A stretch of DNA of 51,660 bases from Elusimicrobiota bacterium (GTDB lineage: Bacteria > Elusimicrobiota > Elusimicrobia > Elusimicrobiales > UBA9959): positions 1-51,660 of the forward strand of contig JAKLQJ010000061.1 of assembly GCA_022013385.1 (NCBI GenBank), read 5' to 3'. Shown here piece by piece: positions 11,281 to 33,104 of the stretch. A model generated the notes under the pieces. The model ran no database searches and was not told where the DNA came from. It saw only the letters and a program-made list of their open reading frames with translations. Each line of letters opens with the position of its first letter. The stretch's first letter is position 1. Both the position numbers and the translations under genes were made by a program.

Positions 11281-11388
11281 ACTTTCCTCCAATAATGACA
11301 GATTAATTTTAAAATTAAAAACAACTTATTGTTTTAATTTACAATCTACTCAACTGTTCTCCAATTTCTGTATCGCTGGCGCGCTGTA

Positions 11389-12696: not shown

Positions 12697-13019
12697 ATAT
12701 GCCGCCTTTTTTCTTTGGCTGATATTTCTAAAATCTTAGCAACACAAGACATAAACTCCAATATACACGGACACTTAAGCTTGTAAAAAATCCGATTCCC
12801 CTTTCTGTTGATATCCACAAGGCCGGCATTTTTAAGCACAGAGAGATGCTTTGAAACGGTTGATATGTCATTGCCTATCGCTTTTGTAAGTTCGCATACG
12901 CAAATATCGCGCTTTGAAAGCATATTCACTATTAAAAGCCTTGTCGGATGGGAAAGCGCTTTTATTGCGGAAGCTTGCTGAAGAAACTTCATTTTCAATT
13001 TACTCTTCATATCAATCAC
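12693..13019 (-). CDS. arsR: ArsR/SmtB family metalloregulator
   Basis: LSHPTRLLIVNMLSKRDICVCELTKAIGNDISTVSKHLSVLKNAGLV is a wHTH with the CVC metalloid-binding motif. Confidence 0.9.
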   Translation of the reverse strand: MIDMKSKLKMKFLQQASAIKALSHPTRLLIVNMLSKRDICVCELTKAIGNDISTVSKHLSVLKNAGLVDINRKGNRIFYKLKCPCILEFMSCVAKILEISAKEKRRHI

Positions 13020-17526: not shown

Positions 17527-18588
17527 TTACTTGACCAATAGTTTGCAACGGGACTCATCAGCGTTGGCCGCGACTAATGCGCCTTTAGCCACGCTTCTTA
17601 AGGGTTGAGATGCCATCCTTACGGAACCAATCGGAATAGGCAGTTTTAATTGGTCCAAGATCTGCTTAAATCTGTTACAAAAACCTTTAGGCAAAGCTGT
17701 GCCTCCGGAGAGAAAGATGGATATGGGTTTTGTAAGCCGCGGTAATTTTTTTGTCCTGGTAATTCTCTCTTTTATGTTCTCAATCACATACTCAATCAAG
17801 TGGTTATAATAAATGGATAAAGCGCTTTCAATCTTGCTTAAGTCTCCTTCCTTACCTAAATCCAGGGATGATTCTTTTATGCTGGAGACCCTGCTCGCTG
17901 TTTCATCCGTTGCCATAGCCACCTGCTGGTCGATCCAATCCCCTGACTTGGCGACGGAAAACTTGAAAATCGGCACAGACATGAAACTTAAACAGACATT
18001 TACCATCCCGCCGCCGAAGGAAATGCCCATCCCGGTGAAATCTTCTTCAGCTAACTCCGATAATACAATCGCATGGGCTTCGTTGATAGCCTTCGGAGCG
18101 TATCCTAATGTCTTCAGGAACCCTTCAACCATTTTTATATGATAAAGGACATTGAATTCCGCGTCCAGGGGTTCGCCCGGGACGGAAAAATAGACTATCT
18201 CGCCTTTATGGGCAGGCTCGCCTACCACGCTTTTTATCAACAACTCTATTATAGGAAGCGCTTCTTTCTCCGAGGGACTTATCACGCCCTTGGAGAGAGG
18301 CCGCCTTGTTTCTTTATTAAACATATTGGCAAATTCCAAGGCCTCATCGCCCACTATATAGAGATTGTTCTCTTTTATAATATATCTTACCCCGGAATTA
18401 TCAAGGATCTTCTTTGTGAAATCAGTATGTTCTATGTCAAAGAAGGCGTTTCGCTGTGATTTAAAGACGACATCATCGCTTTCCTTATGGGCGCATTTTA
18501 CAAACATTGTGCCGATATCCACGCCCTTGCCTTTTTGTATCTGTCCTTTAAGGCTTTCTATTTTCATTCCTTTCTTGGGCTTAGTCAT
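17527..18588 (-). CDS. actin/MreB/Hsp70-NBD-fold ATPase (353 aa) inside the gvp island
   Basis: Three motifs appear in the canonical order: GVDIGTMFVKCA (phosphate-1), GISFGGGMVNV (phosphate-2) and LSGGTALPKGF (adenosine). There is also an MreB-like RRPLSKGVISPSEKEALPIIELLIK segment. GGGGAG RBS; the ATG overlaps the upstream stop. Confidence 0.7.
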   Translation of the reverse strand: MTKPKKGMKIESLKGQIQKGKGVDIGTMFVKCAHKESDDVVFKSQRNAFFDIEHTDFTKKILDNSGVRYIIKENNLYIVGDEALEFANMFNKETRRPLSKGVISPSEKEALPIIELLIKSVVGEPAHKGEIVYFSVPGEPLDAEFNVLYHIKMVEGFLKTLGYAPKAINEAHAIVLSELAEEDFTGMGISFGGGMVNVCLSFMSVPIFKFSVAKSGDWIDQQVAMATDETASRVSSIKESSLDLGKEGDLSKIESALSIYYNHLIEYVIENIKERITRTKKLPRLTKPISIFLSGGTALPKGFCNRFKQILDQLKLPIPIGSVRMASQPLRSVAKGALVAANADESRCKLLVK

Positions 18589-19111
18589 TTTTTCTCCCCT
18601 TTTTATAAATTTCGTTAAGCAATTTCACTGTTTTATCTATATCTGACTTCTCCTTTTCCATCTTTATTCCAATTTTATTGATATTGCTTTCTAAAGCCAG
18701 ACTTTCATCTTCTATGGGAAAATCAAAATCGGTGTTTATTTTTATGCGTTTTTCCGGCGTCTCAAGTTCCGTCTCTTTTCTTATTTCCCTGATAGAAACA
18801 GGGATCTTGATGCCCTTTACGGTCCTCTTCAGCTCGCCGCTGATTTCCCTGGCTACTTCCTCGGCAACCTCTTTAAGCAGTTTCCTGTCGATTTTTGGCG
18901 TTTCTTCCGCCAATAGCGTCTTTATTCTCTCTTTTGCCAGGGAATAATGACCTGCAGAAAAACCAAGATAGCCTTTTCTGAATAAATCACGGCAGAGATA
19001 ACCTATATATTCCAGCGAAAAGCCGACCTGCCTTCGTATCTGGTCTTTTTTCGCCATCCTTAATCTGGCTACACAATTAATGATATCCGCTTCTGTCCCG
19101 GTCAAAGCCAC
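18581..19111 (-). CDS. winged-helix-like N-terminal domain plus charged coiled-coil tail (176 aa)
   Basis: GTG start at 19111 follows GGGAGAA. TEADIINCVARLRMAKKDQIRRQVGFSLEYIGYLCRDLFRKGYLGF...SLAKE aligns with the three small wHTH paralogues at 26124-26940. Confidence 0.55.
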   Translation of the reverse strand: MALTGTEADIINCVARLRMAKKDQIRRQVGFSLEYIGYLCRDLFRKGYLGFSAGHYSLAKERIKTLLAEETPKIDRKLLKEVAEEVAREISGELKRTVKGIKIPVSIREIRKETELETPEKRIKINTDFDFPIEDESLALESNINKIGIKMEKEKSDIDKTVKLLNEIYKKGRKND

Positions 19112-19112
19112 T

Positions 19113-19883
19113 CTATTTCTCCCATTCCTCAGGATAAATGATGATGTTGACGAAATTAAAGGCGGGCAAAGGCCCCGCGTAGGCAAATTTTATCCTGTTT
19201 TTATACTCTTCGCTTAAATCGCTCATAATATTGTCAAATTCTTTTTCCCTGCCTTTGTCCACCAGGAAAGCGGCGTTTATAAACATATTGTCGCCGCTGG
19301 TTTTATTGAGCTTATAACTGACGGAGGTTCTTCTCAGGCGCTCTACTATTTCCTCCGCCTCATTGGTTTTCTTTTTTTGCAGGGCGGCTTCCACCAGTTT
19401 ACCCGCTTCCCCTTTTTTTGGGATATTTTTCACGGTCGCGTCGTTTTGGAGTTTCTCCTTCATCTCGCGGATATCCGCGTTTCCTTTCACAATTTCCTTA
19501 AAAATAACGCCCATGTCCACCCATGTCCCTTTGACGCCCAGTTCCACCTTATGGTCTAAATCGCGCAAAGCGATTTTGAATTCCCCGCGTCTGCGGTCCA
19601 GGAGATTCCTTATTTCATCGGCGCTGGCGGCGATGGTGCCGAATCTGATCGGAAGCGCGCTGTCAAATTCCTTCATCACTTCCTCTATAACCCTCGCGTG
19701 GGCCAGCATGTTTTCGCCTGTTGCCTTAATTTTGGTCAAAGGATGATTGCTTACCACCATGGTTAGGTCGTCATAGCCGATAGTCAGGACTTCGCCGCCG
19801 TTTATGCCTATCGGGCCGAAATTTCTTTCCTGCCTGTCGCCGATTATGCAATAGGCGTATTGGCCTTCTTTTATTATTATCAT
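19113..19883 (-). CDS. gas vesicle protein GvpF/GvpL family (paralogue 3)
   Basis: MIIIKEGQYAYCIIGDRQERNFGPIGINGGEVLTIGYDDLTMVVSNHPL...AHARVIEEVMKEFDSALPIRFGTI. The ORF-track N-terminal extension (MTYGHQTARTGT) is repeat-derived. Confidence 0.88.
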   Translation of the reverse strand: MIIIKEGQYAYCIIGDRQERNFGPIGINGGEVLTIGYDDLTMVVSNHPLTKIKATGENMLAHARVIEEVMKEFDSALPIRFGTIAASADEIRNLLDRRRGEFKIALRDLDHKVELGVKGTWVDMGVIFKEIVKGNADIREMKEKLQNDATVKNIPKKGEAGKLVEAALQKKKTNEAEEIVERLRRTSVSYKLNKTSGDNMFINAAFLVDKGREKEFDNIMSDLSEEYKNRIKFAYAGPLPAFNFVNIIIYPEEWEK

Positions 19884-19938: not shown

Positions 19939-21012
19939 CTAGTCTGTCATTTTAACCAGTATGGCGCTTTCTTTGAATTTTTCTTCGCTGAAGGAGATAT
20001 CCGCCTCACTGCCCGCTGGCCCGCCGTCCGTTTGGCGGGTCTGCTCGCCGGCCCGGCAATAGTCCGCCAGAATTTTATACGCTCTCGCGGCATTGCCGAA
20101 TTCTTTTTCCATTCCGGGCTTATCCGGGTTTTTGTCGGGATGCAAAGCATGCGCCGCGCGGTGATAGTGTCTTTTGATTTCGCTTTTGGTTATTATCATG
20201 GTGGACACCCCTAATTGATTGCGCGCCCACTCCAGGTCCTTAAAATCCAGTTTCTTTATATCAATGGTGTAAAAACTATATGGGGGCAATGGGCCGATGC
20301 ACCGGAAATTCAGCTTTTCGGAGCATTCTTTATTAAGGCTTTCTATACGCGCATAAAATTCCTCTTGTTTAGCTTTGCTTATCAAAAAAGCTGAATTCAT
20401 TACCATCTGGTCATCCATTAATTCATGCGCCTTGCAATCATGGCTCATTCGTTTTAAAGTATCCTGTATCAAACTTGAATAATGCTGCTTTTTTTCGTCC
20501 AATATTTCCATAACCTTAAGGCCGACTTTCATCTGATCGTCCACAGTCACGCCTTTAGCGGCTCCCAAAAGAACTTTTTTTAACTCCGTTATTTCTTTTT
20601 CCTGTCCGATTCCTTTAAGTATTGAACCAAAATCTTTCCATGTGACGGCGACATCTATTTCTATTTTGTCATGAACTTTTGGGATAATTTCTTTTATCAG
20701 ACGATAACCCTTAACCAGAATATCCCGGACTTCCGCGTCATCACAGGCAAATGTCCCTAATCTGATTGGGATAATGGTGTTTCCGAGTTCCATAATATTC
20801 TCAATTGCCTTTTGGTGCCGGACTAGAAGCATGGCCACAGCGTCTTTGCGCATACTCTTGTAATCAATTATTTCGCAGTCGCTTACCACTGCCGCCGCGT
20901 CCCGGTGCGGGATGGTATAAATGCCCGCTAAATCCGGCGCCGCTTCGGCCCCGGGGAATTTTGCCGCGGCGGATGCGATGATTCCATAAAGATATTTTCC
21001 TGTCTTGCGCAT
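19939..21012 (-). CDS. GvpF/GvpL family protein (paralogue 4) fused to a C-terminal J-domain
   Basis: N-terminus: KYLYGIIASA...IYTIPHRDAAAVVSDCEI...RHQKAIENIMELGNTIIPIRLGTF. C-terminus: KSEIKRHYHRAAHALHPDKNPDKPGMEKEFGNAARAYKILAD, with HPD codons at 20134-20142. GGAGGAG RBS. Confidence 0.85.
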   Translation of the reverse strand: MRKTGKYLYGIIASAAAKFPGAEAAPDLAGIYTIPHRDAAAVVSDCEIIDYKSMRKDAVAMLLVRHQKAIENIMELGNTIIPIRLGTFACDDAEVRDILVKGYRLIKEIIPKVHDKIEIDVAVTWKDFGSILKGIGQEKEITELKKVLLGAAKGVTVDDQMKVGLKVMEILDEKKQHYSSLIQDTLKRMSHDCKAHELMDDQMVMNSAFLISKAKQEEFYARIESLNKECSEKLNFRCIGPLPPYSFYTIDIKKLDFKDLEWARNQLGVSTMIITKSEIKRHYHRAAHALHPDKNPDKPGMEKEFGNAARAYKILADYCRAGEQTRQTDGGPAGSEADISFSEEKFKESAILVKMTD

Positions 21013-21648: not shown

Positions 21649-23829
21649 TCAAACGGACAAGAACGGCTTAATTGCTTCTTCAAAATGTCTCTTTAAAACT
21701 TTCAGCTCCGGTTCCAGTTCAGACGCACCCTTCATGTCGGAGGCCGGGTTCTTTTCTATGTATTCCCGTATCGCCAGCATTACAGCCTTGCGGCAGATCA
21801 ATTCAATGTCAGAGCCCGTCTTGCCTTCGGTCCCTTTCACCAGGTCTTTCAAATCAATATCATGGGCAAGCGGCTTATTGCGGGTATGTATTTTGAATAT
21901 TTCCTCCCGGGTCCCGGGATCAGGTTTGGGCAGAGACAGCAACAGGTCAAACCTGCCGCTGCGAAGGATAGCGGGCTCAATCAAATCCAGTCTATTTGTG
22001 GTTGCTAAAACCAAGACGCCGTTGAGTTCCTCTATACCGTCCATTTCGGTCAAGAATTGGCTGATGACGCGTTCGGTAACATGCGCGTCCGCGCTCGCGG
22101 AACCTCTTATGGGAAGCAAAGCGTCAATTTCGTCAAAAAACAAAATGGTGGGCGAGGCCTGCTTCGCGGTTTTAAACACCTCGCGCAGAGCCTTCTCGCT
22201 TTCCCCTACAAATTTTGAAATAAGGCTCGGCCCCTTTACTGAGATAAAATTCACGCCGGTCTGACTGGCCACAGCCTTTGCCAGCAAGGTCTTTCCCGTG
22301 CCCGGCTCGCCGTAAAGAAGTATCCCCTTGGGCGGCTTTGCGCCCGCTTTTTTAAAAACAGCCGAATACTTAAGCGGCCACTCGACCGCTTCTTTGAGTT
22401 CTTCCTTTATGCTTTCCAACCCTCCGACATCTTCCCACTTCACATCGGGCACTTCCACGAAGAATTCCCTTATGGCCGAAGGCTCTACTTCTTTCATTGC
22501 GTCGGCAAAATTGTCCATGGAAATTTCCAGCTTGAGCAGGGTTTCGTAAGGGATATCATCCTTAGCAAGATCGAGATCGGGCAGAATTTTTCGCAAAGCC
22601 GACATAGCGGCTTCCCTAGCCAGCGCCTCTAAATCCGCTCCCACAAAGCCATGTGTGATTTCAGCCAATTTTTCCGGACTTACATCTTTGGCTAGCGGCA
22701 TGCCTCTGGTGTGAATCTGCAGTATTTGCAGTCTTCCGTTTTTGTCGGGAATGGGGACGGATATCTCCCTGTCAAATCGTCCAGGTCGTCTTAAAGCCGG
22801 ATCTAGGGTATTGGGAATATTCGTAGCTCCTATCACAATAATTTGGCCGCGGGATTTCAAGCCATCCAGTAATGCCAAAAGTTGCGCCACCACGCGCCGC
22901 TCCACCTGCTTTTCACCGCCCATGTCTTCGCGTTTGGGCGCGATGGCGTCTATCTCGTCAATGAAAATGATGGCTGGCGCGTGGGCTTGAGCGTCCTCAA
23001 ATACGCTTCTTAAGCGCCCCTCGCTCTCACCATAAAACTTCCCCATGATTTCAGGGCCGGATATGTGGTTAAAATAAGCGTCGGTTTCATTGGCCACGGC
23101 GCGGGCGATTAAGGTTTTTCCTGTTCCCGGCGGTCCATATAGAAGAACTCCTTTGGGCGCGTCTATTCCCAATCTTTCAAATATCTGAGGATAGCGCAAA
23201 GGCAATTCAATCATCTCCCTGATTCGCCGAATTTGCTGACCAAGTCCGCCGATGTCCTCGTAAGATATCTTGGTTTGTCCGTCTTTCTCTGTTTCTTTTA
23301 CATCCATCCTTAATAGAGTGGATATATTTATCAAAACCGTTCCGTCGGGAACGGTATCCGATACCTTAAAATCGCAAGATCTTGACCCGAATAGCATGGC
23401 CCTGACCCTGTCTCCGCTCGCGACGGGGAGCCCCTCTATGAGCGAACCCAAATATTTGGTGTCCTGATTCTTCCGCGACAGAGAGGAAAGAGACAAAGGG
23501 ATGAGGGTAATTCGGACAGCAGGCTTTGGAACAATTTTGTGAATGTTTACTTTTTCATCCAGTCCGATTTGCGCGTTTTCCCTGCATATTCCATCCATCT
23601 GAATGATGCCCTTTCCTCTATCTTCAGCATAACAAGGCATGGCCTTGGCGGATGTTTTTCTCTTGCCTTCAACCTCAAGGATGTCGCCTACTTCCGCGTT
23701 GAGCGTCTTCAGGTCTTCAGGATCAATTCTCACAATCGCCCTGCCGACATCTTTGGCTAAAGCCTCTTTTACTTTCAATGTCAAGAGCGCGTCGCCTTTT
23801 CCCGTTTTCTTATTTATATCTTTACCCAT
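21649..23829 (-). CDS. Cdc48/VCP/VAT-like AAA+ ATPase (N-domain plus D1 and D2)
   Basis: Cdc48-type N-domain (LKVKEALAKDVGRAIVRIDPEDLKTLNAEVGDILEVEGKRKT). Two Walker A motifs (GPPGTGKTLIARAVANE and GEPGTGKTLLAKAVAS), two DEID Walker B motifs. 726 aa. Confidence 0.93.
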   Translation of the reverse strand: MGKDINKKTGKGDALLTLKVKEALAKDVGRAIVRIDPEDLKTLNAEVGDILEVEGKRKTSAKAMPCYAEDRGKGIIQMDGICRENAQIGLDEKVNIHKIVPKPAVRITLIPLSLSSLSRKNQDTKYLGSLIEGLPVASGDRVRAMLFGSRSCDFKVSDTVPDGTVLINISTLLRMDVKETEKDGQTKISYEDIGGLGQQIRRIREMIELPLRYPQIFERLGIDAPKGVLLYGPPGTGKTLIARAVANETDAYFNHISGPEIMGKFYGESEGRLRSVFEDAQAHAPAIIFIDEIDAIAPKREDMGGEKQVERRVVAQLLALLDGLKSRGQIIVIGATNIPNTLDPALRRPGRFDREISVPIPDKNGRLQILQIHTRGMPLAKDVSPEKLAEITHGFVGADLEALAREAAMSALRKILPDLDLAKDDIPYETLLKLEISMDNFADAMKEVEPSAIREFFVEVPDVKWEDVGGLESIKEELKEAVEWPLKYSAVFKKAGAKPPKGILLYGEPGTGKTLLAKAVASQTGVNFISVKGPSLISKFVGESEKALREVFKTAKQASPTILFFDEIDALLPIRGSASADAHVTERVISQFLTEMDGIEELNGVLVLATTNRLDLIEPAILRSGRFDLLLSLPKPDPGTREEIFKIHTRNKPLAHDIDLKDLVKGTEGKTGSDIELICRKAVMLAIREYIEKNPASDMKGASELEPELKVLKRHFEEAIKPFLSV

Positions 23830-23877: not shown

Positions 23878-24858
23878 TCACCGCGCATTAAGTTTGCTTG
23901 CTAACGAAGTTTGTAGGTCGCTTTGCGATGCCAATTGAAGGCCGAAAGTATTTAAATCGTTCATGCCTTTAACTTCCCGCGGCCGCAAAAACACGAGGGT
24001 TGTCTTGAGATTTGCGAATTTTTTCTTTATCCGGCTTATATACTTTTCCTGCTCTTTTCTTCTCTCTCTGCAAAATTTGCAATCGCTCGGTTCCATAACA
24101 TTATTGATAACCAATTGTTTCACTTCCACGCCGTAATCGCTCAAACTTTGAATCAATCGCGAGGTTTCCTGAATAGCCATATCTTCGGGAATCGTAACGC
24201 CAATGAACTCACAGCGGTTTTCATCCTTAATAAGTTCTCCTATTTTTTTTACCATCTTTTTCATATTTAGCAGAAAATCATCGGCTTTATCGGGAACATA
24301 TCTGCCGCTGAAGGTTTTAATTATATATCGATACTTCCATCTAATCTTAGCCAACATCTTAATCCAACCATCCAGAAGTTGGGGCATGGTTAAAAGCCGC
24401 AAGGCATGGCCGGTAGGCGCGGTATCAATTATGTATTTATCGAATTCCCCTTTGTCCATAAGATTTAGTACGGTTTTAAAACCCATAACTTCGTCTAACC
24501 CGGGGATAGACAGGGAAAACACGGATTCAATATCGTCTTTGTCTAAATTGGTTGATGTATCCAATATTTCTCTAATCTCTTTGGCATATTCCGTTTTAAA
24601 TTCGCTAAGGGCTTTGTCCGCGTTTATTTCAAGCGCCCACAAATTTTTTATGCCTTTTACCTCTTTTATACTATCTCCGATTTGTTGTCCCAGACTGTCC
24701 GATATGGAATGCGCCGGGTCGGTAGACAAAAGAAGTGTTTTAAATTCTTTGGCCAGAAAAACACCGGTGCTGACAGCGCAGGTCGTTTTTCCCACGCCGC
24801 CTTTGCCACCAAACAGAATAAGCTTTAATGCGCTTTCTTTAAGTCCAATCAGGGGCAT
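23878..24858 (-). CDS. single-domain ArsA/Get3-family ATPase with Get3-type CxxC
   Basis: Deviant Walker A GGKGGVGKTT, and STDPAHSISDSLG. CKFC (24070-24081) is followed by RERRKEQEKYISRI, which resembles the Get3 zinc-motif region. Overlaps the Hsp20 stop by 10 nt. Confidence 0.88.
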   Translation of the reverse strand: MPLIGLKESALKLILFGGKGGVGKTTCAVSTGVFLAKEFKTLLLSTDPAHSISDSLGQQIGDSIKEVKGIKNLWALEINADKALSEFKTEYAKEIREILDTSTNLDKDDIESVFSLSIPGLDEVMGFKTVLNLMDKGEFDKYIIDTAPTGHALRLLTMPQLLDGWIKMLAKIRWKYRYIIKTFSGRYVPDKADDFLLNMKKMVKKIGELIKDENRCEFIGVTIPEDMAIQETSRLIQSLSDYGVEVKQLVINNVMEPSDCKFCRERRKEQEKYISRIKKKFANLKTTLVFLRPREVKGMNDLNTFGLQLASQSDLQTSLASKLNAR

Positions 24859-25370
24859 TTTTTAAGCCTCACTTCGAGAACTCCGTTTTTATAGGACGGG
24901 ATGGGAACCTCGGCCGTCACTTTCGCCGGGAGCAGGATTTCTTTGTGGTATTTCCTGTCACTTGTCCCGGCCCGGATATCCAGGATGTCGCCTTTTAAGT
25001 CCAGCTTTATGTCCGCTTCGTTCACACCTGGCATTTCAGCATACACCCGGATCTCTTCTTTCTCATCAAAGATGTCCGTGATGGGCTCGCGCTCTTCTTC
25101 AACTATAGGGCCCTTGGGCGTTTTTTTGATATTGCCAAATGGTTCAACGACCGCTTTTCCTCCGGCCATGTTCTTTACTGAAAACCCGAAAACGCCTTTC
25201 ATCCCTTTTTTAAGATGGCTTAAATCAATTTCGCCTTCTTTTTTGATTTCGCCGCCCGCATCTTCTAGTTTGCTAGCCAGATCAATCAGTTGCCCAATCC
25301 CCTTAAATAACCCGCCAATGCCAAAATCAAAACCTATTTCTTCTTCCTTTTTCTTCTTTTCCTTTGCCAT
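24849..25370 (-). CDS. Hsp20/alpha-crystallin family small heat-shock protein
   Basis: C-terminal ACD: EIRVYAEMPGVNEADIKLDLKGDILDIRAG...KEILLPAKV...SYKNGVLEVRLKK. GGAGG RBS. Confidence 0.9.
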   Translation of the reverse strand: MAKEKKKKEEEIGFDFGIGGLFKGIGQLIDLASKLEDAGGEIKKEGEIDLSHLKKGMKGVFGFSVKNMAGGKAVVEPFGNIKKTPKGPIVEEEREPITDIFDEKEEIRVYAEMPGVNEADIKLDLKGDILDIRAGTSDRKYHKEILLPAKVTAEVPIPSYKNGVLEVRLKKCP

Positions 25371-25418: not shown

Positions 25419-25796
25419 TTACTTTTTATAAACGATCCCTATTCCTTTACATAATAAACAGGGTAGATTGCCGCCTTTTTCCCTTCCCCTCCCTCTGCAA
25501 GTAGGGCATATCTCTACTTTGCTAGTAGGGACGCTCACAACCCCTTTTCCCCTACAGACAGAACAGGTAAGGTCGCGATTTATATGTGATTTTCCTGAAC
25601 CATTACAATAAGCGCAGACCACTGCCGGCGGTTGAACCTTTATTGTCCCGGCGCCCAAACAAACATTACACTTCATGCTTTTTTTAGATCCTCTTCCTGT
25701 GCAGAAGCCACATCTATATATGTGTTCATTGAGAACTTCACCCTTTCTGCCTGTTCTGCCTGATAGTTGGCTCTTAAAATTCATGGTTTTCCACAT
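25419..25796 (-). CDS. zinc-finger protein with six DnaJ-CRD-type CxxCxGxG repeats (paralogue 2)
   Basis: The six repeats are CGFCTGRG, CNVCLGAG, CAYCNGSG, CSVCRGKG, CPTCRGRG and CLLCKGIG. GGGAGG RBS. Confidence 0.8.
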   Translation of the reverse strand: MWKTMNFKSQLSGRTGRKGEVLNEHIYRCGFCTGRGSKKSMKCNVCLGAGTIKVQPPAVVCAYCNGSGKSHINRDLTCSVCRGKGVVSVPTSKVEICPTCRGRGREKGGNLPCLLCKGIGIVYKK

Positions 25797-25824: not shown

Positions 25825-26127
25825 TCAATATTGTAAAGGCACAGTCTTCCAGTCTTTTTCAGATTTTTTAAATTCTTTTCCCACACTTTCTTTTCTCTCG
25901 ACTTCTTGCTTTTGTAATTCGTCCATCTGCTTATTAACATCATCGAGTTTCTTTCGGATATCCTTTATCCTTTTATCTAAAGGATAGAGTTCTTTTTCCA
26001 ACCTATCTTTTTCTTTATATAGTATATGTAAGTGACCAAAGATTTCTAACTGTGAGATAGACCTTTTGTCGCTTGAGCTCATACTCCGGTTGTTTCTTAA
26101 ACCGCTAATTTCCGATACATCCTTCAT
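25825..26127 (-). CDS. coiled-coil hypothetical protein ending in WKTVPLQY (paralogue of 27630-27953)
   Basis: Shares M(K/R)DV..GL, KRSI, (L/I)Y..KEK(D/E)RL.KE and the terminal (D/E)WKxxPLxY with its paralogue. ATGA start/stop overlap with the upstream gene. Confidence 0.6.
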   Translation of the reverse strand: MKDVSEISGLRNNRSMSSSDKRSISQLEIFGHLHILYKEKDRLEKELYPLDKRIKDIRKKLDDVNKQMDELQKQEVERKESVGKEFKKSEKDWKTVPLQY

Positions 26128-26333
26128 TTTATCATGCCCTTTCCTTTTACAGTTATTCTACAAGATGAGGGCGAAAAAAATCCCACGCAATCTTGTCTTT
26201 CTAATGCCTTGCACAATATATAAGTATAGCCAATTTCAAAGCCTGCTTTGGTGCTCAGTTCCTTCATACATATCAAATCGTTTTTTTCCTTTATAATCCT
26301 TAATATCTCTAATTCCGTAGCGGTTACAGTCAT
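26124..26333 (-). CDS. small winged-helix-like protein (69 aa), paralogue c
   Basis: TATELEILRIIKEKNDLICMKELSTKAGFEIGYTYILCKALERQDCVGF...ITVKGKG aligns with 26342-26650, 26665-26940 and 18581-19111. Confidence 0.55.
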   Translation of the reverse strand: MTVTATELEILRIIKEKNDLICMKELSTKAGFEIGYTYILCKALERQDCVGFFSPSSCRITVKGKGMIK

Positions 26334-26341
26334 TGGCCATT

Positions 26342-26650
26342 CTAATAATTTATAGTTTCTATATTTTTTAAGATTCTCTTTTTATTTTTTTCTCTGGACT
26401 TTTTAATATTTTCTTTCTGCCTTTTAAGCTTAAAAAACCGATTTTTTTCTATTACTTCTTTTCCTTTTTCCGTCAGGCCGCATATCCCTCTAAAGGTATC
26501 AAAATCAACATAATCACTTCTTTCTAAGCCCTTACAAATTACATAGGCATAATGCTCACTTATCCTCAACCCTTGAGCGATTATATAATAATGAATCCGG
26601 TCTTCATTTTGGGCAATAATATCTAAAGTTTCCTGCTCCATGCTGGTCAT
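26342..26650 (-). CDS. small winged-helix-like protein (102 aa), paralogue b
   Basis: EQETLDIIAQNEDRIHYYIIAQGLRISEHYAYVICKGLERSDYVDF...LTEKGKEV followed by a basic tail. Confidence 0.55.
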   Translation of the reverse strand: MTSMEQETLDIIAQNEDRIHYYIIAQGLRISEHYAYVICKGLERSDYVDFDTFRGICGLTEKGKEVIEKNRFFKLKRQKENIKKSREKNKKRILKNIETINY

Positions 26651-26664
26651 CTATTAGCCCGTTA

Positions 26665-26940
26665 TTAGAAAGTTTTCCATTTGGCGCGGTCTTCTAAATA
26701 TCTTTTGAATCCGTCTGAGGCCGCCTTAGGCTTTTTACCTAATGCTACGCAACCTTTGTCTGCAATTCTGACTTTTCCAGATCTAAAAATATCTATGATA
26801 TCATTTTCACCCATAGAGCGAAGAATTATCCTAACATAACCAGGGTCCAGGCGCATTTTCTTAGCAATCCTGCCTATACCGCACTCCCCACCTTCAGTTT
26901 CAATTATCTTAAGAATTTTGGCCTCATCCGGCGTTGGCAT
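26665..26940 (-). CDS. small winged-helix-like protein (91 aa), paralogue a
   Basis: PDEAKILKIIETEGGECGIGRIAKKMRLDPGYVRIILRSMGENDIIDI...IADKGCVA. Strong GGGAGGA RBS. Confidence 0.6.
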   Translation of the reverse strand: MPTPDEAKILKIIETEGGECGIGRIAKKMRLDPGYVRIILRSMGENDIIDIFRSGKVRIADKGCVALGKKPKAASDGFKRYLEDRAKWKTF

Positions 26941-27180: not shown

Positions 27181-27477
27181 TTATTTTATCTTCGCTTCTA
27201 AGCGCTCAAGTCGCTTTTTGAGTGTCATATTTTCTTTTTCTATCTCAGATTCTTTTGCTTTTGAGGAAAGAAAATCATCAGTTTGCCACCAATTTATACC
27301 CATCTGCATTGCTTTATCCACAGAAGCGACTAAAAGTCTTATCTTGATAGTGAGCAAATCTACATCAGCAACTTGAATCTTAATGTCACCGGCAATGACT
27401 ATTCCTTTATCTAAGACTCTTTCTAATATATCAGCGAGATTGATGGTTTCAACAGCGTGGACTATCTGATTAGGCAT
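27181..27477 (-). CDS. gvpJ: gas vesicle protein GvpJ/GvpM type (GvpA fold)
   Basis: INLADILERVLDKGIVIAGDIKIQVADVDLLTIKIRLLVASVDKAMQMGINWW. The ATG at 27477, 7 nt after AGGAGG, is preferred over the GTG at 27486. Confidence 0.88.
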   Translation of the reverse strand: MPNQIVHAVETINLADILERVLDKGIVIAGDIKIQVADVDLLTIKIRLLVASVDKAMQMGINWWQTDDFLSSKAKESEIEKENMTLKKRLERLEAKIK

Positions 27478-27495
27478 TTTTAACACCTCCTGGAT

Positions 27496-27657
27496 TTATT
27501 CTTCTTCTTTTGCCATCTCTTCTTTTCGCGCATACGAAACTACTTCCAAGTCATCCGTCAATTTAATCTCATAAATATTTCTATCCTGCGCCCTGATAGG
27601 TAGGCCAAAAGATTTATCACATTCCTGTTTTAATAACTCAAAGGCATCTTTTTCCAT
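27496..27657 (-). CDS. mini GvpO-like ORF (53 aa), below ORF-track cutoff
   Basis: Own translation: MEKDAFELLKQECDKSFGLPIRAQDRNIYEIKLTDDLEVVSYARKEEMAKEEE. It matches the GvpO (16137-16409) C-terminus ALGLPVKVQDRNIYTVKLNDGMEIESYARAQ. It overlaps the upstream gene's 3-prime end by 28 nt and has a weak RBS. Confidence 0.45.
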   Translation of the reverse strand: MEKDAFELLKQECDKSFGLPIRAQDRNIYEIKLTDDLEVVSYARKEEMAKEEE

Positions 27658-27953
27658 TCTTTTTTGACGCTATTGCCTTGCGGATATGAAGAGTTTGTGT
27701 TTGCGCTAGATTTTGCAATGGCTTCTGCCTCTTGCAATTTACCCATCTCAGAGTCAACCTCTTTTAGGCGTTTCTCAATGAGAGTACCTCTTAAACTCAC
27801 TCTCTCACCTTCCTTTAGAAGCCTTTCCTTCTCTTTACCCAGCATATACAAATCTAAATAAGCAGAGCTCTGAACTCTGGGTATAGAACGCTTTTTTGTG
27901 CTCAGCATGGTCTTTGATCCATGGAGGCCTTTCACAGTATTCACATCTCTCAT
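27630..27953 (-). CDS. coiled-coil hypothetical protein ending in WKKMPLSY (paralogue of 25825-26127)
   Basis: Start taken at MRDVNTVKGL (27953) by alignment with the paralogue's MKDVSEISGL. The ORF-track upstream extension overlaps the AbrB-like gene. Confidence 0.6.
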   Translation of the reverse strand: MRDVNTVKGLHGSKTMLSTKKRSIPRVQSSAYLDLYMLGKEKERLLKEGERVSLRGTLIEKRLKEVDSEMGKLQEAEAIAKSSANTNSSYPQGNSVKKEWKKMPLSY

Positions 27954-27981
27954 AGCTATCTTCTCCCTAAAATATACTGAC

Positions 27982-28152
27982 CTACCTTGCGCTACCTCTG
28001 GTTGAAACCAGAATATTCTTTTTTCTGGATGCCCCGACAATCTTAAGTTCAATCAACTGACATTCTTTTAAGTCAGCTGCGCGTCGAATATTGCGGGGGA
28101 GTTTTATATTACCCTCTTTATCCACCCGAGAAAAGGCTCGTATCAAAGTCAT
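27982..28152 (-). CDS. AbrB/MazE/SpoVT-type DNA-binding protein (56 aa)
   Basis: RVDKEGNIKLPRNIRRAADLKECQLIELKI fits the swapped-hairpin AbrB motif. GGAGGTG lies 7 nt before the ATG at 28152. It is the first gene after a 128-bp repeat-bearing gap. Confidence 0.7.
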   Translation of the reverse strand: MTLIRAFSRVDKEGNIKLPRNIRRAADLKECQLIELKIVGASRKKNILVSTRGSAR

Positions 28153-28331: not shown

Positions 28332-29300
28332 TTATATAGCTACAGTCTCTTTCTTTGCTTCTTTCTTTATATCAACAGTTTTTCCCTTGCCAAGTTCTTT
28401 TTCCACAAGCCCCTTAATTATGTCCTTTACTCTAGCCTGATTCGTCTTAGAACCAACCCTGCTTGTCTCTGAGGCCAGAATATCCTGACATGTTTTCATA
28501 AACCCATCAGATTTAGAGGGGGTGAAGTTTTGAGCTTTAAGGGTTTTGGCAATCATAATGCAGCCACGGACTGTGGGCGCAAACTCACACTTTCCAGAGT
28601 CTCTTAAGCCTCTGACAATATTGACTATTACTTCTGCATGGGGTTTAGAAAGTTTAGACTTTGCCAGAGTGATAGCCAGTTCTGTCTCATAGTCAAAGCA
28701 GTCCAAATCCATTGTTATCATTCTATCCCGAAGAGCATCCTGGCTCCTATGAACACCAGCATATTCCTCAGGGTTAGAGGTAAAGATCGCTGTAAACTCA
28801 GGATCTACCCTTAAATACGGCTCCGCTCCATCTCTTCCCACTGGCATATCCATCATCTTCTCCTGCAAAATAGAAAGGAGGATGTTATTTGCCTCAGGCC
28901 GTGAGCGAGTAAACTCATCATAGATTAGTGTAAATCCATATTTACAGGCAACGGTCAGGCGGTTATCCACCCAGCGCTTTACCATATCCTCTTCTACTTT
29001 TAAAACCCGGGAGACAAAGCGATCAACAATCTTTTTAAACCGATAGCCGTGCTCACCACCCACTAAATCCGAAGTGGTAAACTCCTCATCTCCATGAATC
29101 ATTACTACCGGCCTTCCTATTTTACTTGAAATGTGCATAGCCAGTGTAGTCTTGCCGGTGCCAGAGATTCCTCTAAAATGCACCGGAAAACCAGCCTTAA
29201 TATAGGAAAGAGTCCTATTAGTGATATCCTTAACATATTTTGTCTCAACAAAGTCCGGCAGGGGACTGGGTTCTAATACTGTAGTCATCTCATCAATCAT
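28332..29300 (-). CDS. gvpN: gas vesicle AAA+ ATPase GvpN
   Basis: FPVHFRGISGTGKTTLAMHISSKIGRPVVMIHGDEEFTTSDLVGGEHGY and LIYDEFTRSRPEANN are typical of GvpN. 322 aa. Confidence 0.92.
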   Translation of the reverse strand: MIDEMTTVLEPSPLPDFVETKYVKDITNRTLSYIKAGFPVHFRGISGTGKTTLAMHISSKIGRPVVMIHGDEEFTTSDLVGGEHGYRFKKIVDRFVSRVLKVEEDMVKRWVDNRLTVACKYGFTLIYDEFTRSRPEANNILLSILQEKMMDMPVGRDGAEPYLRVDPEFTAIFTSNPEEYAGVHRSQDALRDRMITMDLDCFDYETELAITLAKSKLSKPHAEVIVNIVRGLRDSGKCEFAPTVRGCIMIAKTLKAQNFTPSKSDGFMKTCQDILASETSRVGSKTNQARVKDIIKGLVEKELGKGKTVDIKKEAKKETVAI

Positions 29301-29306: not shown

Positions 29307-29504
29307 TCACTCTCCTTTCTTAATTTTTTGCTTCTTTTTCTCCAATATTTCACTCGTTTCTTTCCAGATTATAGTTGCTTCTTCTAAATCTTCCACTATC
29401 TCCTTTTTCTTCTTCATAAACTCTTCTCTGAAGGAATTGAGTTTGGTTAAGGATTCTTCCTTCCTTTTAATAAATCCATATCTATAATTGCTCAATTCCT
29501 TCAT
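29307..29504 (-). CDS. small charged coiled-coil protein (65 aa)
   Basis: The ATG at 29504 forms an ATGA overlap with the stop of the zinc-finger gene. No family recognised. Confidence 0.45.
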   Translation of the reverse strand: MKELSNYRYGFIKRKEESLTKLNSFREEFMKKKKEIVEDLEEATIIWKETSEILEKKKQKIKKGE

Positions 29505-29857
29505 TTCGCTATCTTTTTCTTTAAGATAATCCCTTTGCCTCTGCATTCAATACAAGGAAGGCCGCTATCAAATGCTGCGCCTGTGCCTTTACACTTAGGA
29601 CACCCTTCAGTCGCGCCTTTAACAGTGACACTTCCCTTGCCATTACAGACAGTGCAGGTAAGCCGTCTATGGGGATAAACGCCGGCGCCGTTACAAAAGA
29701 CACATTTTATTGCCGGTTCTATTACCTCAACTTTACCCCTTCCTCCGCAGACTTGACAGGTGGCAAACTCAGACAACAAATCAAAGGGGTCTTTACCTGT
29801 GCCTTTGCAGAAAGCGCACCCTGCCTCTTTAAAGGCATACTTTATTTTTTTCATCAT
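29501..29857 (-). CDS. zinc-finger protein with six DnaJ-CRD-type CxxCxGxG repeats (paralogue 1)
   Basis: The six repeats are CAFCKGTG, CQVCGGRG, CVFCNGAG, CTVCNGKG, CPKCKGTG and CIECRGKG. Confidence 0.8.
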   Translation of the reverse strand: MMKKIKYAFKEAGCAFCKGTGKDPFDLLSEFATCQVCGGRGKVEVIEPAIKCVFCNGAGVYPHRRLTCTVCNGKGSVTVKGATEGCPKCKGTGAAFDSGLPCIECRGKGIILKKKIAK

Positions 29858-30187: not shown

Positions 30188-30955
30188 TTACCTCTTTTTC
30201 CCTTTCCTTCCTCTTTTTTTACCTTTCCCTTTCCCTTTCGGCTTTTTAACAGTCTTTACTTCTGCAGTGGCTTTTATCTTGACACGATTGCCTTTCCCTT
30301 TCGGCTTTTTAACAGTCTCTACTTCTGTAGCAGCTTCTATCTTGACAGGCCCGCCTTCTCTTTTCTTAGCCATCATGGTAACCAAATCCTGCCAATTTGC
30401 CGCCATCTTTTCTCTTTCGGTCTTGAAGGCTTCCAGCGTATCGAGAACTTCTTTATTTCTCTCATCCTGTCTTGCCCGAATTACATCTATTAGTTTCTTA
30501 GTTTCATTAACCACATCCTTCACATATTTTTGGGTACCATTCATCATTTTCTTGAAGTCTGCAAGCCTATCCGTTTCTCCTTTTGCAAGGCTTTTCTCAA
30601 GCTCATCCGCCATAGCCGCGTGGTCTTTTGTAAAGTTTTCTAATAGATCTGCCACGCCATTAGCTCTCTCCTTGCCTTCTTTCTGAATTCCTTTCATTAA
30701 TTTAGCGGTCTCATTAACCATGTCCTGCACAAACTTCTTAATCTCAGTCCACATTGCTTTGAAGGCAACAAGCCTGTCTGTTTCTCCTTTCGCAAGGACC
30801 CCTCTCAGATTATCAGCCATCTCCTTATGCTCGGTGTGAAAACCTTTGAGCATTTGGTGAGTATCTTTTACTAATCTTCCTATTGCCTTTACCCGTGTAT
30901 CATAAGAGGCAACAATATCTTCACCAAGTACTTTGATATCAGTAGCTATTCCCAT
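30188..30955 (-). CDS. alpha-helical repeat protein (about 68-aa period) with Lys/Gly-rich tandem tail; candidate GvpC-like shell-associated protein
   Basis: Two repeat units align: LKGFHTEHKEMADNLRGVLAKGETDRLVAFKAMW... and LENFTKDHAAMADELEKSLAKGETDRLADFKKMM... The tail is VKKPKGKG x2 followed by KKRGRKGKKR. AGGAGG RBS before the ATG at 30955. It is the second gene downstream of gvpA. Confidence 0.65.
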   Translation of the reverse strand: MGIATDIKVLGEDIVASYDTRVKAIGRLVKDTHQMLKGFHTEHKEMADNLRGVLAKGETDRLVAFKAMWTEIKKFVQDMVNETAKLMKGIQKEGKERANGVADLLENFTKDHAAMADELEKSLAKGETDRLADFKKMMNGTQKYVKDVVNETKKLIDVIRARQDERNKEVLDTLEAFKTEREKMAANWQDLVTMMAKKREGGPVKIEAATEVETVKKPKGKGNRVKIKATAEVKTVKKPKGKGKGKKRGRKGKKR

Positions 30956-31016
30956 TTTTACTTCCTCCTTTTTCTTTTTCAAGTTATTACTAATACATTA
31001 CAAACCAAGGCTAAAA

Positions 31017-31754
31017 TCAAACCTTGGCAACTTCTTTTTTTTCTTCTGTCTCACTTCCTTTCAGGCTATCTGTTATTTTATGCCAATGAGAAGCCATGGC
31101 AAAATGTTCTTTTCTGAATTCATCTAATTTCTTCCTAATCTCTTCTTCCCGCTCTGACTGTCTTATGCGGATGTTTTTTACCATCTCTTTAAAGTCCTTA
31201 ATGCGTATGGCTTCTCCTTTATTTAAAAGGCTGTGCAGCGATTCGGCCATCTCCTTATATTCTTCCTGAAACGCTTCTAATCTTGTTCTTATTTCATCCT
31301 CTCTGGCCTTCTGCCTAACCTGAATATCTTGCAGCATTTTTCTAAAATCGTCTATCCTGACTTTTTCAGTCCCTGTCAAGCTCTTCTTAATAACCTCAGC
31401 TATCTCCTTTTGCTCTTCAAAAAAAGTCTTTAATAAATTCCGCACCTCTTTTTCTCTTTCATCTTGATGGGACAATATATCTTGCATCATGTCATCAAAA
31501 TCTTTTTTTCTTAGGGATTCTTCTTTGGAGAGAATATCTTTGAGTTGATCGCTCATTTCATTTCTTCTGGTTTTAAAATCCTCTAGCAACTGACGAGTAT
31601 CATCTACAATCATGGCAACTGTAGAAATTCTGGATTGATAAGACGAAACTATTTCTTCAGCGACTCTCTTCATATCCTCGGCAATTTTCATGATTTTACT
31701 CTTTAAATTTTTTACTTTTTTTAAATGGGAAGGAGGAATTTCTTGGCTAACCAT
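31017..31754 (-). CDS. alpha-helical repeat protein (about 51-aa period, 3.3 units); candidate GvpC-like shell-associated protein
   Basis: Units begin LEDFKTRRNEMSDQLKDILSKEESLRKKDFDDMMQDI..., LKTFFEEQKEIAEVIKKSLTGTEKVRIDDFRKMLQDI... and LEAFQEEYKEMAESLHSLLNKGEAIRIKDFKEMVKNI... It lies immediately downstream of gvpA. Start is uncertain (31754 or 31691). Confidence 0.65.
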   Translation of the reverse strand: MVSQEIPPSHLKKVKNLKSKIMKIAEDMKRVAEEIVSSYQSRISTVAMIVDDTRQLLEDFKTRRNEMSDQLKDILSKEESLRKKDFDDMMQDILSHQDEREKEVRNLLKTFFEEQKEIAEVIKKSLTGTEKVRIDDFRKMLQDIQVRQKAREDEIRTRLEAFQEEYKEMAESLHSLLNKGEAIRIKDFKEMVKNIRIRQSEREEEIRKKLDEFRKEHFAMASHWHKITDSLKGSETEEKKEVAKV

Positions 31755-31814
31755 GCTTTTTCCTGCTTCCGCAGGATAAGGGTGGTCGGGCAAGAAATCC
31801 TCTTTACCTTATCC

Positions 31815-32021
31815 TTAGGCGGCTGTTGCCGTTAAGCCGATGGCTTCCGCGTACTTAAGGTAAGTCTCAACTGAAGCGACCACCACGCGGGCTTCTATCG
31901 CGAGTAGTTCAATACCCACGAGCGAAATCCTTACCCACGCGTCAATTACTATACCCTTGTCCAGTATGCGGTCAATGACTTCAACCAGGCTGGATGAACC
32001 GATTGCTTTTTCTACGGCCAT
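31815..32021 (-). CDS. gvpA: major gas vesicle structural protein GvpA
   Basis: [62 protein letters not shown] is a near-consensus GvpA sequence. AAGGAGG RBS. Confidence 0.97.
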
Positions 32022-32244: not shown

Positions 32245-32589
32245 TCAAAGTTCGCTACAGAAATAGTCATCTTTGGCCGTCTGATAAGCATAGCTTCTTG
32301 ATACGGCACCCAGCATAGCCTTGGCATAACGCGGTTTTTTTATAATGCTTTTGTATCTTTGCTTTTCCCCCGTTTTTGAATACCCGCGGAAATTTCCCGT
32401 GAAATCTACCAATACATCATAAGTCCAAACAATAGCGGGTTTTAATGTATTGCGAAATTTTTCCGTTATGTCAACACTGACACGCCAAATGTCTTTTTCT
32501 TTTGATATTTTGCGTATTATAGGAAAATCAAATCCCGTAAATTCCGCCAAATTGTTTTTGGCGATTTTGATTAATTCCTTTTCATTCAT
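32245..32589 (-). CDS. GvpO-like protein (114 aa) upstream of gvpA; C-terminal tail repeat-encoded
   Basis: LAEFTGFDFPIIRKISKEKDIWRVSVDITEK...WTYDVLVDFTGNFRGYSKTGEKQRY follows the GvpO pattern (DxWxVxV..E...YDVxVDxxGxxxxY...RY). The last 25 or so codons read through a CATAGC-type repeat (32288-32325). Confidence 0.5.
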   Translation of the reverse strand: MNEKELIKIAKNNLAEFTGFDFPIIRKISKEKDIWRVSVDITEKFRNTLKPAIVWTYDVLVDFTGNFRGYSKTGEKQRYKSIIKKPRYAKAMLGAVSRSYAYQTAKDDYFCSEL

Positions 32590-32774
32590 TCCGCTTTATT
32601 CCTTCCTTTAAAACGCTTTTCCGATTTTGACCGTCTAAAAAGCACAGCCTATATGGTGCCTGACAATAGGTTCTGAAACTTCTGTAGTGTAAAATTATAA
32701 CAGTTAATATAAACCCTGTCAACAGGGCTAGCATTAACTTAACAAAAGTCAAATTTTTCATTATACTTTGAGTC

Positions 32775-33104
32775 ATGGATATTTACAAAGAAATCGGAAA
32801 GCGAATATTATTTGCAAGAAAAACCCTCAATTTAACACAGGAAAACATCGCTGAAGCAGCGGGGATAGAAACTTCTTTCTATGGACAAATTGAAAGAGGA
32901 GCGAATATTCCAAGCATATTTACACTTAGCAAAATCGCAAAAGCTTTAAATATTGAAACTTCAGATTTATTTCCATCATCTGCCAAAAGGCAAAGTCCGC
33001 AAACAAAAATAATAATCAATATGATTGAAAAGTTTTCGCCCCAAAATAAAGAGTTTGTTGTTGATATGCTTATGAAATTATCTAAACGCCTTAGAAAATA
33101 TTGA
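32775..33104 (+). CDS. XRE-family helix-turn-helix transcriptional regulator, divergent from the gvp island
   Basis: LTQENIAEAAGIETSFYGQIERGANIPSIFTLSKIAKALNIETSDLF is the HTH_3/XRE signature. Confidence 0.85.
   Translation: MDIYKEIGKRILFARKTLNLTQENIAEAAGIETSFYGQIERGANIPSIFTLSKIAKALNIETSDLFPSSAKRQSPQTKIIINMIEKFSPQNKEFVVDMLMKLSKRLRKY

Follow-up and report, generated by a model that had tools for sequence, protein, structure and literature searches.

A single-domain Get3-clade ATPase overlapping an Hsp20 gene in the gas-vesicle island of an Elusimicrobiota bacterium

The 51,660-nucleotide contig JAKLQJ010000061.1 of an Elusimicrobiota bacterium (assembly GCA_022013385.1; this whole stretch is called the window below) carries on its minus strand a gas-vesicle (gvp) gene island, and within it an ATPase gene of the ArsA/Get3 family (23878-24858, minus strand, 326 aa) which follows directly on a gene for a small heat-shock protein, Hsp20 (24849-25370, minus strand, 173 aa). 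The protein is a single-domain member of the Get3 branch of this family, as supported by both its sequence and its structural neighbours, and we are highly confident that it is a Get3-clade ATPase dedicated to gas-vesicle biogenesis and not to arsenic, even though NCBI names a 100% identical protein "ArsA family ATPase". The linkage of ArsA-family and hsp20 genes with gvp clusters was already reported in an earlier study (Castillo and Saier, 2010; PMC2963123). This work assigns the gvp-linked ATPase to the branch of Get3 and not to that of ArsA, and adds a large clade of single-domain proteins with a CxxC that is dedicated to gvp clusters, together with a conserved block of genes for Hsp20, the Get3-like ATPase, a CDC48-type protein and a GvpF fused to a J-domain (GvpF::J-domain).

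A first-pass annotation, made from the sequence letters, had described the protein as a 326-aa single-domain ATPase with GGKGGVGKTT and TDPAHS motifs, and this was confirmed by translation of the open reading frame (ORF) and by its match to Pfam ArsA_ATPase (1e-80). The NCBIfam model TIGR00345 (GET3_arsA_TRC40) matched with 277 bits against a cut-off of 135 bits, although this model also takes in ArsA and thus gives a superfamily placement only. Neither of two models for the arsenical pump came near its cut-off, the equivalog TIGR04291 (arsen_driv_ArsA) scoring 131 bits versus 650 and NF041417 scoring 173 bits versus 800. The top single-domain matches among PDB sequences were two Get3 proteins from archaea, M. 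thermautotrophicus (3zq6) and M. jannaschii (3ug6), each with 192 bits, followed by eukaryotic Get3/TRC40 sequences with 136-165 bits, while E. coli ArsA reached only 132 bits as the sum of both of its halves. Mean identities followed the same order, with 36% to the N-halves of tandem gvp-linked ATPases (the nearest relatives outside the clade), 34-35% to archaeal Get3, 33% to fungal Get3 and 26% to the halves of E. coli ArsA. In a neighbour-joining tree, where the E. coli ArsA halves form long branches, the single-domain gvp clade was monophyletic in 79 of 100 bootstraps; a Get3-only group was found in just 25 of 100, and the tree did not resolve the deep order of the gvp clades with respect to archaeal and eukaryotic Get3.

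The catalytic motifs of the ATPase are intact. The deviant Walker A P-loop GGKGGVGKTT (residues 17-26; 24781-24810, minus strand) is invariant in 31 aligned homologues, as are switch I (STDPAHS, with Asp47), switch II (D145TAPTGH) and the A-loop (E295xxG298); all four elements align with those of Get3 from M. jannaschii, M. thermautotrophicus and C. thermophilum, and the P-loop also with those of ArsA. The CKFC motif (C260 and C263; 24070-24081, minus strand) is homologous to the zinc-coordinating CxxC of Get3 and is aligned with CDFC in M. jannaschii, CEFC in M. thermautotrophicus and CEQC in C. thermophilum. The helix that comes after the CxxC, R-x-x-K-x-Q-x-K-Y-I/L-x-x-I, is likewise common to Get3, and E. 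coli ArsA is without both. The suggestion that CKFC mirrors the Get3/TRC40 motif, unlike arsenite-pump ArsA, is therefore upheld by the alignment. Two additional cysteines, C27 (24778-24780, minus strand) and C216 (24211-24213, minus strand), are invariant in the same alignment, C216 lying a few residues upstream of the position of the paired cysteines (VCVC) of fungal Get3; the conserved cysteines of the ATPase are thus C27, C216, C260 and C263. The metalloid-binding cysteines of R773 ArsA are C113, C172 and C422, and no cysteine of the ATPase was aligned with that of the segment GS-C-TTE in the N-half of E. coli ArsA, which we take to be the metalloid ligand C113.

An AlphaFold2 model (predicted local distance difference test 76.6, predicted template modelling score 0.77) is folded in the manner of Get3 and contains its helical subdomain (helices 80-136 and 152-211), the helices of which are amphipathic. 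When the model was searched against the PDB with Foldseek, the best 50 matches were all Get3/TRC40 chains, with archaeal ones at the top (template modelling scores 0.67-0.82). The helical subdomain comprises 121 residues, compared to 126-127 in archaeal Get3 and 90-106 in the halves of E. coli ArsA. Its long helix, in what is the putative client-binding part of the protein, carries a clade-specific sequence A-K-x-R-W-K-Y-R-Y (residues 170-178; 24325-24351, minus strand), of which R173, W174, K175, Y176, R177 and Y178 are invariant in the 31-homologue alignment and are matched by unrelated residues in archaeal and eukaryotic Get3. Taken together, the identities (26% against 33-36%), the profile scores and the 50 out of 50 structural neighbours set the ATPase outside arsenite-pump ArsA, as had been anticipated.

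The start of the ATPase gene overlaps the stop of the Hsp20 gene by 10 nt (24849-24858, minus strand), just as the first-pass annotation had it: the minus strand reads GTG AGG CTT AAA AAA TGC CCC TGA, with the Hsp20 TGA at 24851-24849 and the ATPase ATG at 24858-24856, and GAGG is found about 9 nt 5' of this ATG. The same 10-nt overlap is present in locus L003, and in 11 other loci the end of the Hsp20 match is 1-9 nt from the ATPase start. Overlapping stop and start codons have the geometry of co-transcription, and the two genes are thus likely to share one mRNA. The CDC48-type gene begins 48 nt downstream of the Get3-like gene.

The conservation of this arrangement was addressed by scanning one genome per GTDB species, which gave 80 loci, and adding five metagenome loci (L001-L085 in all), the neighbourhoods being screened by tblastn with the Gvp, Hsp20 and CDC48 proteins of the window. 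All 22 loci with bacterial single-domain relatives (46-80% identity) were within gvp clusters; L002 is a duplicate of L001, so that they represent 21 distinct places. At least nine phyla are represented among these loci, which were found in Omnitrophica, Pirellulales, Nitrospinota, Chlorobiaceae, several Bacteroidota, Desulfovirgula, Spirochaetales, Patescibacteria and Dehalococcoidales. Hsp20 is directly upstream of the ATPase in 18 of the 21 single-domain loci that have upstream sequence, and CDC48 is directly downstream in every one of the loci L001-L018 (18/18; 17 distinct places). Close homologues at 65-80% identity number in the hundreds in metagenomes, and three long metagenome contigs share the order GvpA ... 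GvpN ... (zinc finger) Hsp20, ATPase, CDC48, GvpF::DnaJ, GvpF/L, GvpG ... GvpK, GvpJ. Among the 120 closest homologues, all but one (119) have the CxxC.

A second group of relatives is formed by tandem two-domain proteins of 620-740 aa (28-46% identity), which are mostly gvp-linked (about 31 loci), in Acidobacteriota, Dehalococcoidia, Anaerolineales, Doudnabacteria, Verrucomicrobiota, Hydrogenedentes, Gemmatimonadota, Myxococcota, Brocadiaceae and Nostoc/Dolichospermum. The tandem gene usually stands after gvpF-gvpG and before gvpJ/K. Among the complete non-cyanobacterial tandem relatives 21 out of 22 have a CxxC in each half, which would be the pattern expected of a fused pseudo-dimer that retains the zinc clamp. 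In cyanobacterial clusters the region matching CDC48 is just about 500 aa long (47-49% identity) and lies beside the tandem ATPase; the same CDC48-like gene adjoins tandem ATPases outside gvp clusters in Lyngbya, Oscillatoriophycideae and Leptolyngbya loci (L062, L067 and L069). In the Verrucomicrobiota locus L034 a fusion of the tandem ATPase with GvpJ::GvpK, which would have been a "Rosetta stone" clue to the client, was considered and rejected, as a stop codon separates the abutting, in-frame genes.

Archaeal single-domain Get3 from Asgard archaea, methanogens and haloarchaea (31-37% identity, n = 20) carries the CxxC in 19 of 20 cases, and tblastn with the window queries found no gvp, Hsp20 or CDC48 neighbours at any of these 20 loci. 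At the sensitivity of one tblastn query, no Hsp20 was found beside Get3 outside gvp clusters, be it at the 20 archaeal loci, at four bacterial single-domain non-gvp loci or at five cyanobacterial non-gvp tandem loci, and a generic Hsp20-Get3 pairing outside gvp clusters was on this basis rejected. A single-domain form with CPFC (35% identity) does occur in a gvp cluster of a Methanomicrobiaceae genome together with Hsp20 and a zinc-finger protein (L029, 954-10834). In the Altiarchaeota locus L022 (1599-4184) a tandem ATPase adjoins GvpN.

The gvp island of the window extends over about 19 kb (approximately 13.3-32.6 kb) and contains, on the minus strand, gvpA, gvpN, four gvpF/L genes, gvpG, gvpJ, gvpK and two gvpO-like genes. 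The Hsp20 ORF exceeds the cut-offs of Pfam HSP20 (25.9 versus 20.8 bits) and ArsA_HSP20 (25.5 versus 22.5 bits), falls slightly under that of the NCBIfam "archaeal Hsp20" model NF041800 (135.4 versus 140 bits) and is matched best in the PDB by 4rzk, deposited as "small heat shock protein hsp20 family" (E 1.2e-18). From these matches it is an ordinary small heat-shock protein of the sort labelled archaeal in NCBIfam; its identification as GvpH was tried and rejected, since Pfam GvpH gave no match at E <= 0.01. The CDC48-type protein (21649-23829, minus strand) is a double AAA+ ATPase of 726 aa matching TIGR01243 (928 versus 803 bits) as well as Pfam CDC48_N, CDC48_2 and two AAA domains. The GvpF/L with a fused C-terminal J-domain (19939-21012, minus strand; Pfam GvpL_GvpF 1.8e-50, DnaJ 2.7e-11) has counterparts after CDC48 in L001 (13542-14591), L003 (13147-14196) and L004 (13380-14513), and its J-domain would imply that host Hsp70 (DnaK) is recruited to a Gvp assembly factor. 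Just upstream of Hsp20 is a protein consisting of a DnaJ-type CXXCXGXG zinc finger only (25419-25796, minus strand; Pfam DnaJ_CXXCXGXG 5.6e-11), with a paralogue at 29501-29857 (minus strand) and homologues in L001, L004, L006 and many related gvp clusters. Zinc-finger-only holdases resembling CXXCXGXG proteins exist in other systems.

Three proteins of the GvpA family are candidate clients of the ATPase: GvpA itself, the major shell protein of 68 aa (31815-32021, minus strand; Pfam Gas_vesicle 6.5e-17), a GvpJ/M-like protein (27181-27486, minus strand; Pfam Gas_vesicle 1.8e-17) and a GvpJ-like::GvpK fusion of 184 aa (14670-15224, minus strand; Pfam Gas_vesicle and GvpK), the two parts of which are separate genes in L001, L003 and L004. 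On the Kyte-Doolittle scale the hydrophobic segments reach 1.97 in GvpJ::K, 1.92 in GvpA (19-residue window, residues 24-42), 1.44 in GvpJ and 1.32 at the GvpG N-terminus, which makes the GvpA segment the second most hydrophobic among the gas-vesicle proteins of the island. A hydropathy scan found no tail-anchored protein in the island, that is no C-terminal segment of transmembrane-level hydrophobicity, the sole strongly hydrophobic segment being N-terminal in a 64-aa ORF (32582-32776), and Pfam and NCBIfam scans of the island proteins gave no match to a receptor-like family of the Get1/2 or WRB/CAML type. The support for the GvpA family as the source of clients is indirect: no tail-anchored protein is encoded in the island, and hydrophobicity there is highest in segments of GvpA, GvpJ and GvpJ::K; that GvpA, GvpJ and GvpM are bound by the ATPase is what we infer from this setting.

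A role of the ATPase as a chaperone or targeting factor for hydrophobic gas-vesicle proteins is the reading that we favour, if by a modest degree. A Get3-branch ATPase that is homodimeric, zinc-clamped and ATP-hydrolysing would have been recruited to gas-vesicle biogenesis, where it would act within a proteostasis block of the gvp operon made up of a zinc-finger holdase, Hsp20, the Get3-like ATPase, a CDC48-type unfoldase and the GvpF::J-domain protein. When ATP is bound and the protein closed, the helical subdomain would with its amphipathic helices shield the aggregation-prone hydrophobic segment of new GvpA-family proteins (GvpA, GvpJ/M), with Hsp20 serving as an upstream or co-operating holdase; ATP hydrolysis would then free the client at the growing vesicle, the site of action of GvpF/L, GvpG and GvpN. 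Hsp20, the zinc-finger proteins, CDC48 and the J-domain of GvpF, which would recruit host DnaK, could thus form a relay around the ATPase. Dimerisation through zinc, the GvpA-family identity of the clients, the co-operation with Hsp20 and CDC48, and the hand-off at the vesicle are all predicted features. The chaperoning of GvpA is an acknowledged need, and in the B. megaterium system it has tentatively been assigned to GvpF/G (PMC11445434). A precedent for joining the two kinds of protein is the natural fusion of a Get3 fold with an alpha-crystallin domain in Get3d (PMC10248533).

Several observations weigh against such a role or limit it. The helical subdomain contains 5% methionine compared to 10-11% in archaeal Get3, and the loop that corresponds to the TRC40 insert lacks several residues (some 9-10 alignment columns in that region), although the subdomain as a whole is just 5-6 residues shorter. 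In the assembled shell the hydrophobic stretch of GvpA forms a beta-hairpin, unlike the transmembrane helix of canonical Get3 clients. To our knowledge, the gvp clusters of Halobacterium, B. megaterium and Serratia form vesicles without any Get3-like gene, and because these well-studied clusters make vesicles without it the role of the ATPase would be an accessory one. The earlier expectation that the CxxC is conserved among orthologues stood for nearly all of the closest homologues but not throughout: the Chlorobiaceae loci (ESGFC) and a metagenome-assembled genome labelled Chitinophaga (EGDFC) have another residue in place of its first cysteine, and both cysteines are replaced in the Patescibacteria locus L020 (ETDFA), which is without Hsp20 and has a different gene order. 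Since the Chlorobiaceae and the Chitinophaga-labelled genome keep the Hsp20-ATPase-CDC48 synteny after loss of the first cysteine, the zinc clamp appears to be ancestral and usual, yet dispensable for the gvp-linked role. The gvp linkage of the Hsp20-ATPase pair was strongly borne out elsewhere, and none of the three refuting conditions named in the first-pass annotation came true. The direct pairing itself is seen in the single-domain loci; tandem-type clusters have Hsp20 directly upstream of CDC48 and several kb from the ATPase (L034, L037, L046, L058 and L070), and in many clusters of Acidobacteriota, Myxococcota and cyanobacteria tblastn detected no Hsp20 within 10 kb. Because the tight Hsp20-ATPase pairing is limited to the single-domain clade, the conserved unit is a loose set (Get3-like, Hsp20 and CDC48) within gvp clusters and not a fixed two-gene cassette.

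Other functions for the ATPase have to be weighed against that of a chaperone for gas-vesicle proteins. It could be the catalytic subunit of an efflux pump for arsenite or another anion whose location among gvp genes is incidental, given its membership of Pfam ArsA_ATPase and the presence of an ArsR-family regulator (12693-13019) and an ArsP_1 permease (11389-12696) about 11 kb away, at the downstream end of the gvp island. Castillo and Saier proposed that ArsA homologues are able to energise ArsP (PMC2963123). These genes were located, as the first-pass annotation had claimed, in a module flanked by a mobile element (8763-13019), which also contains an IS200-type Y1 transposase (8763-9515) and a CDF cation-efflux protein; the orthologous loci L001, L003 and L004 do not have this ArsR/ArsP module. 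The orthologues are without accompanying ars genes and always have gvp genes on both flanks. With this context, a score of 131 bits where the ArsA equivalog requires 650, a single domain with one P-loop, no cysteine at the GS-C-TTE position and 26% identity to E. coli ArsA, an arsenite pump is ruled out for practical purposes and we give it next to no credence. A ParA/MinD-like ATPase of the same SIMIBI class, spacing or anchoring gas vesicles perhaps with the volactin-type actin of the island, is also very improbable: the deviant Walker A, the weak Pfam matches to the CbiA, ParA and AAA_31 models and the volactin homologue would agree with it, but the ParA and CbiA matches span little beyond the P-loop region and are at or under the cut-off, the Get3-specific helical subdomain and CxxC helix are present, the 50 top structural neighbours are all Get3, and the volactin gene is found in the window only, whereas the ATPase is conserved.

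A more serious alternative, if still an unlikely one, is that Hsp20, the Get3-like ATPase and CDC48 make up a general stress or quality-control operon which travels with gvp genes, for example through stress co-regulation, and serves broad clients that are not specific to Gvp. All three belong to general chaperone families with housekeeping archaeal versions as their best matches, the three genes are not contiguous in tandem-type clusters, yeast Get3 doubles as a general holdase under redox control (cited in PMC10248533), and hsp20 beside gvp genes has been taken as a sign of heat-shock regulation (PMC7325909). This has to be set against the position that the block has in at least nine phyla, inside the gvp operon, between gvpN/gvpJ and gvpF/L and on the same strand, the gaps being 0-100 nt, against the GvpF::J-domain fusion as the next gene, which physically ties the recruitment of chaperones to a Gvp protein, and against the monophyly of a single-domain clade in which every sampled member is gvp-linked. 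The CxxC might alternatively serve mainly as a redox switch, oxidation (as in buoyant anaerobes rising toward oxygen) turning the protein into an ATP-independent holdase that protects vesicle proteins in the manner of yeast Get3. The conserved CxxC with the invariant C27 and C216 and the redox-chaperone function of the Get3 CxxC cited in PMC10248533 would fit such a switch, which is conceivable as an addition to the chaperone role; as the main function we regard it as improbable, for the idea is speculative, several gvp-linked orthologues have lost the CxxC with synteny kept, and no redox partner is encoded nearby.

Compared with described systems, the ATPase has the same genomic setting as the gvp-linked ArsA homologues of Castillo and Saier (PMC2963123). 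These were reported from Pelodictyon, Polaribacter, Geobacter uraniireducens, Anabaena/Nostoc and an acidobacterium, where they accompany hsp20 in clusters containing gvpN, L/F, G, J, K and M, the operon being free of ars genes. In that paper the gvp-linked homologues have two domains and a length of about 600 aa and are said to "energize a biogenic step"; the window ATPase differs from those in being single-domain and CxxC-bearing. No link of these homologues to Get3 or to a CxxC was met in the passages covered, nor do they mention CDC48, GvpF::DnaJ or zinc-finger neighbours, terms that were not specifically searched for. With 53-54% identity to the window ATPase, the Chlorobiaceae loci L010, L011 and L014 fall into its single-domain clade. 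In our literature search the ArsA-gvp link was described solely in the 2010 paper and no paper linked Get3 or tail-anchored targeting to gas vesicles, "tail-anchored" being met only in one reference list; studies on gas vesicles and CDC48 were, by title and abstract, haloarchaeal or general, and another paper makes no mention of the ATPase.

Archaeal Get3 (3ug6/3ug7 and 3zq6) shares with the ATPase its length class (324-349 aa), P-loop, switch I and II, A-loop and CxxC at 34-38% identity, but lacks its gvp, Hsp20 and CDC48 neighbours in the archaeal genes sampled, as well as its RWKYRY motif, and has the longer TRC40-insert loop and more methionine; unlike the canonical Get3 setting, the island is without a detected membrane receptor or tail-anchored client. 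Get3d, found in cyanobacteria, green bacteria and chloroplasts in the context of photosynthesis, has a Get3 fold with a fused C-terminal alpha-crystallin domain, is without the CxxC helix and has a missing or degenerate A-loop; it bound a tail-anchored protein in vitro and has been proposed to act as a chaperone or to bind tail-anchored proteins (Barlow et al., 2023; PMC10248533). The window ATPase is similar to Get3d in that a bacterial Get3 fold is combined with a module of the Hsp20 fold, which here exceeds the cut-off of Pfam ArsA_HSP20, and dissimilar in that Hsp20 is encoded by a separate upstream gene, neither CxxC nor A-loop has been lost and the setting is that of gas vesicles; the ATPase itself ends at residue 326 after the A-loop helix without a fused alpha-crystallin domain. 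Arsenite-pump ArsA of the E. coli R773 type (1f48) has in common with it the Pfam family, the deviant Walker A and DTAPTGH, but consists of two domains in tandem (585 aa, two P-loops), is without a CxxC at this place and is encoded in an operon with arsR and arsD, as well as arsB. The tandem gvp-linked ATPases share the gvp linkage and, through their N-halves, are nearest outside the clade, and differ as fused pseudo-dimers.

The island contains further genes that deserve mention. An actin-fold homologue of volactin, an archaeal actin family, is encoded between GvpF paralogues (353 aa; 17527-18588, minus strand; Pfam Volactin 6.7e-95, 319 bits), adjoined by an ORF without assigned function (18581-19186, minus strand). 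It was absent from all 85 other loci L001-L085 by tblastn at 1e-4 and so looks like an insertion specific to the window; it may form a vesicle-positioning filament. Together with the archaeal gvp-linked members, the archaeal-flavoured matches of Hsp20, CDC48, Get3 and volactin hint that the module may have come from archaea or been exchanged with them. Directly downstream of gvpA, where GvpC-like outer-shell proteins are expected, lie two helical repeat proteins of about 260 aa (30188-30982 and 31017-31793, minus strand) with weak apolipoprotein-like matches and with unnamed syntenic ORFs in L001, L003 and L004. GvpN is an AAA+ ATPase (28332-29300, minus strand; TIGR02640, 326 versus 267 bits). 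Two coiled-coil ORFs without a family match (25825-26127 and 27630-28052, minus strand) are apparently paralogous, with C-termini KDWKTVPLQY and KEWKKMPLSY, and three successive small ORFs of 69, 102 and 91 aa in the middle of the island (26124-26940, minus strand), two of which have weak winged-helix matches (HTH_24, MarR), are possible regulators of the cluster.

The extremely hydrophobic GvpA has to stay soluble and enter the growing vesicle. In model clusters GvpF and GvpG are chaperones by hypothesis only (PMC11445434), and heterologous expression of gas vesicles leads to proteotoxic stress (PMC12848028). A dedicated block of Hsp20, Get3-like ATPase, CDC48 and GvpF::J-domain is found in many environmental gvp clusters, and through the chaperone hypothesis the handling of shell proteins becomes accessible to concrete and simple tests. 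We put forward, tentatively and as the more doubtful extension of that hypothesis, that a Get3-family targeting factor was repurposed for a protein-shelled, membrane-less organelle and that with the zinc-finger holdase, Hsp20, CDC48 and the GvpF J-domain it might constitute a dedicated, archaeal-flavoured relay which keeps GvpA-family proteins soluble and inserts them at the gas-water interface, such that transplanting the block would relieve the proteotoxicity that limits heterologous expression. If the block is indeed a client-specific chaperone relay, the role of the Get3 family would extend from membrane targeting to a protein-shelled organelle, and its genes would provide parts for better acoustic reporter genes and for gas-vesicle engineering.

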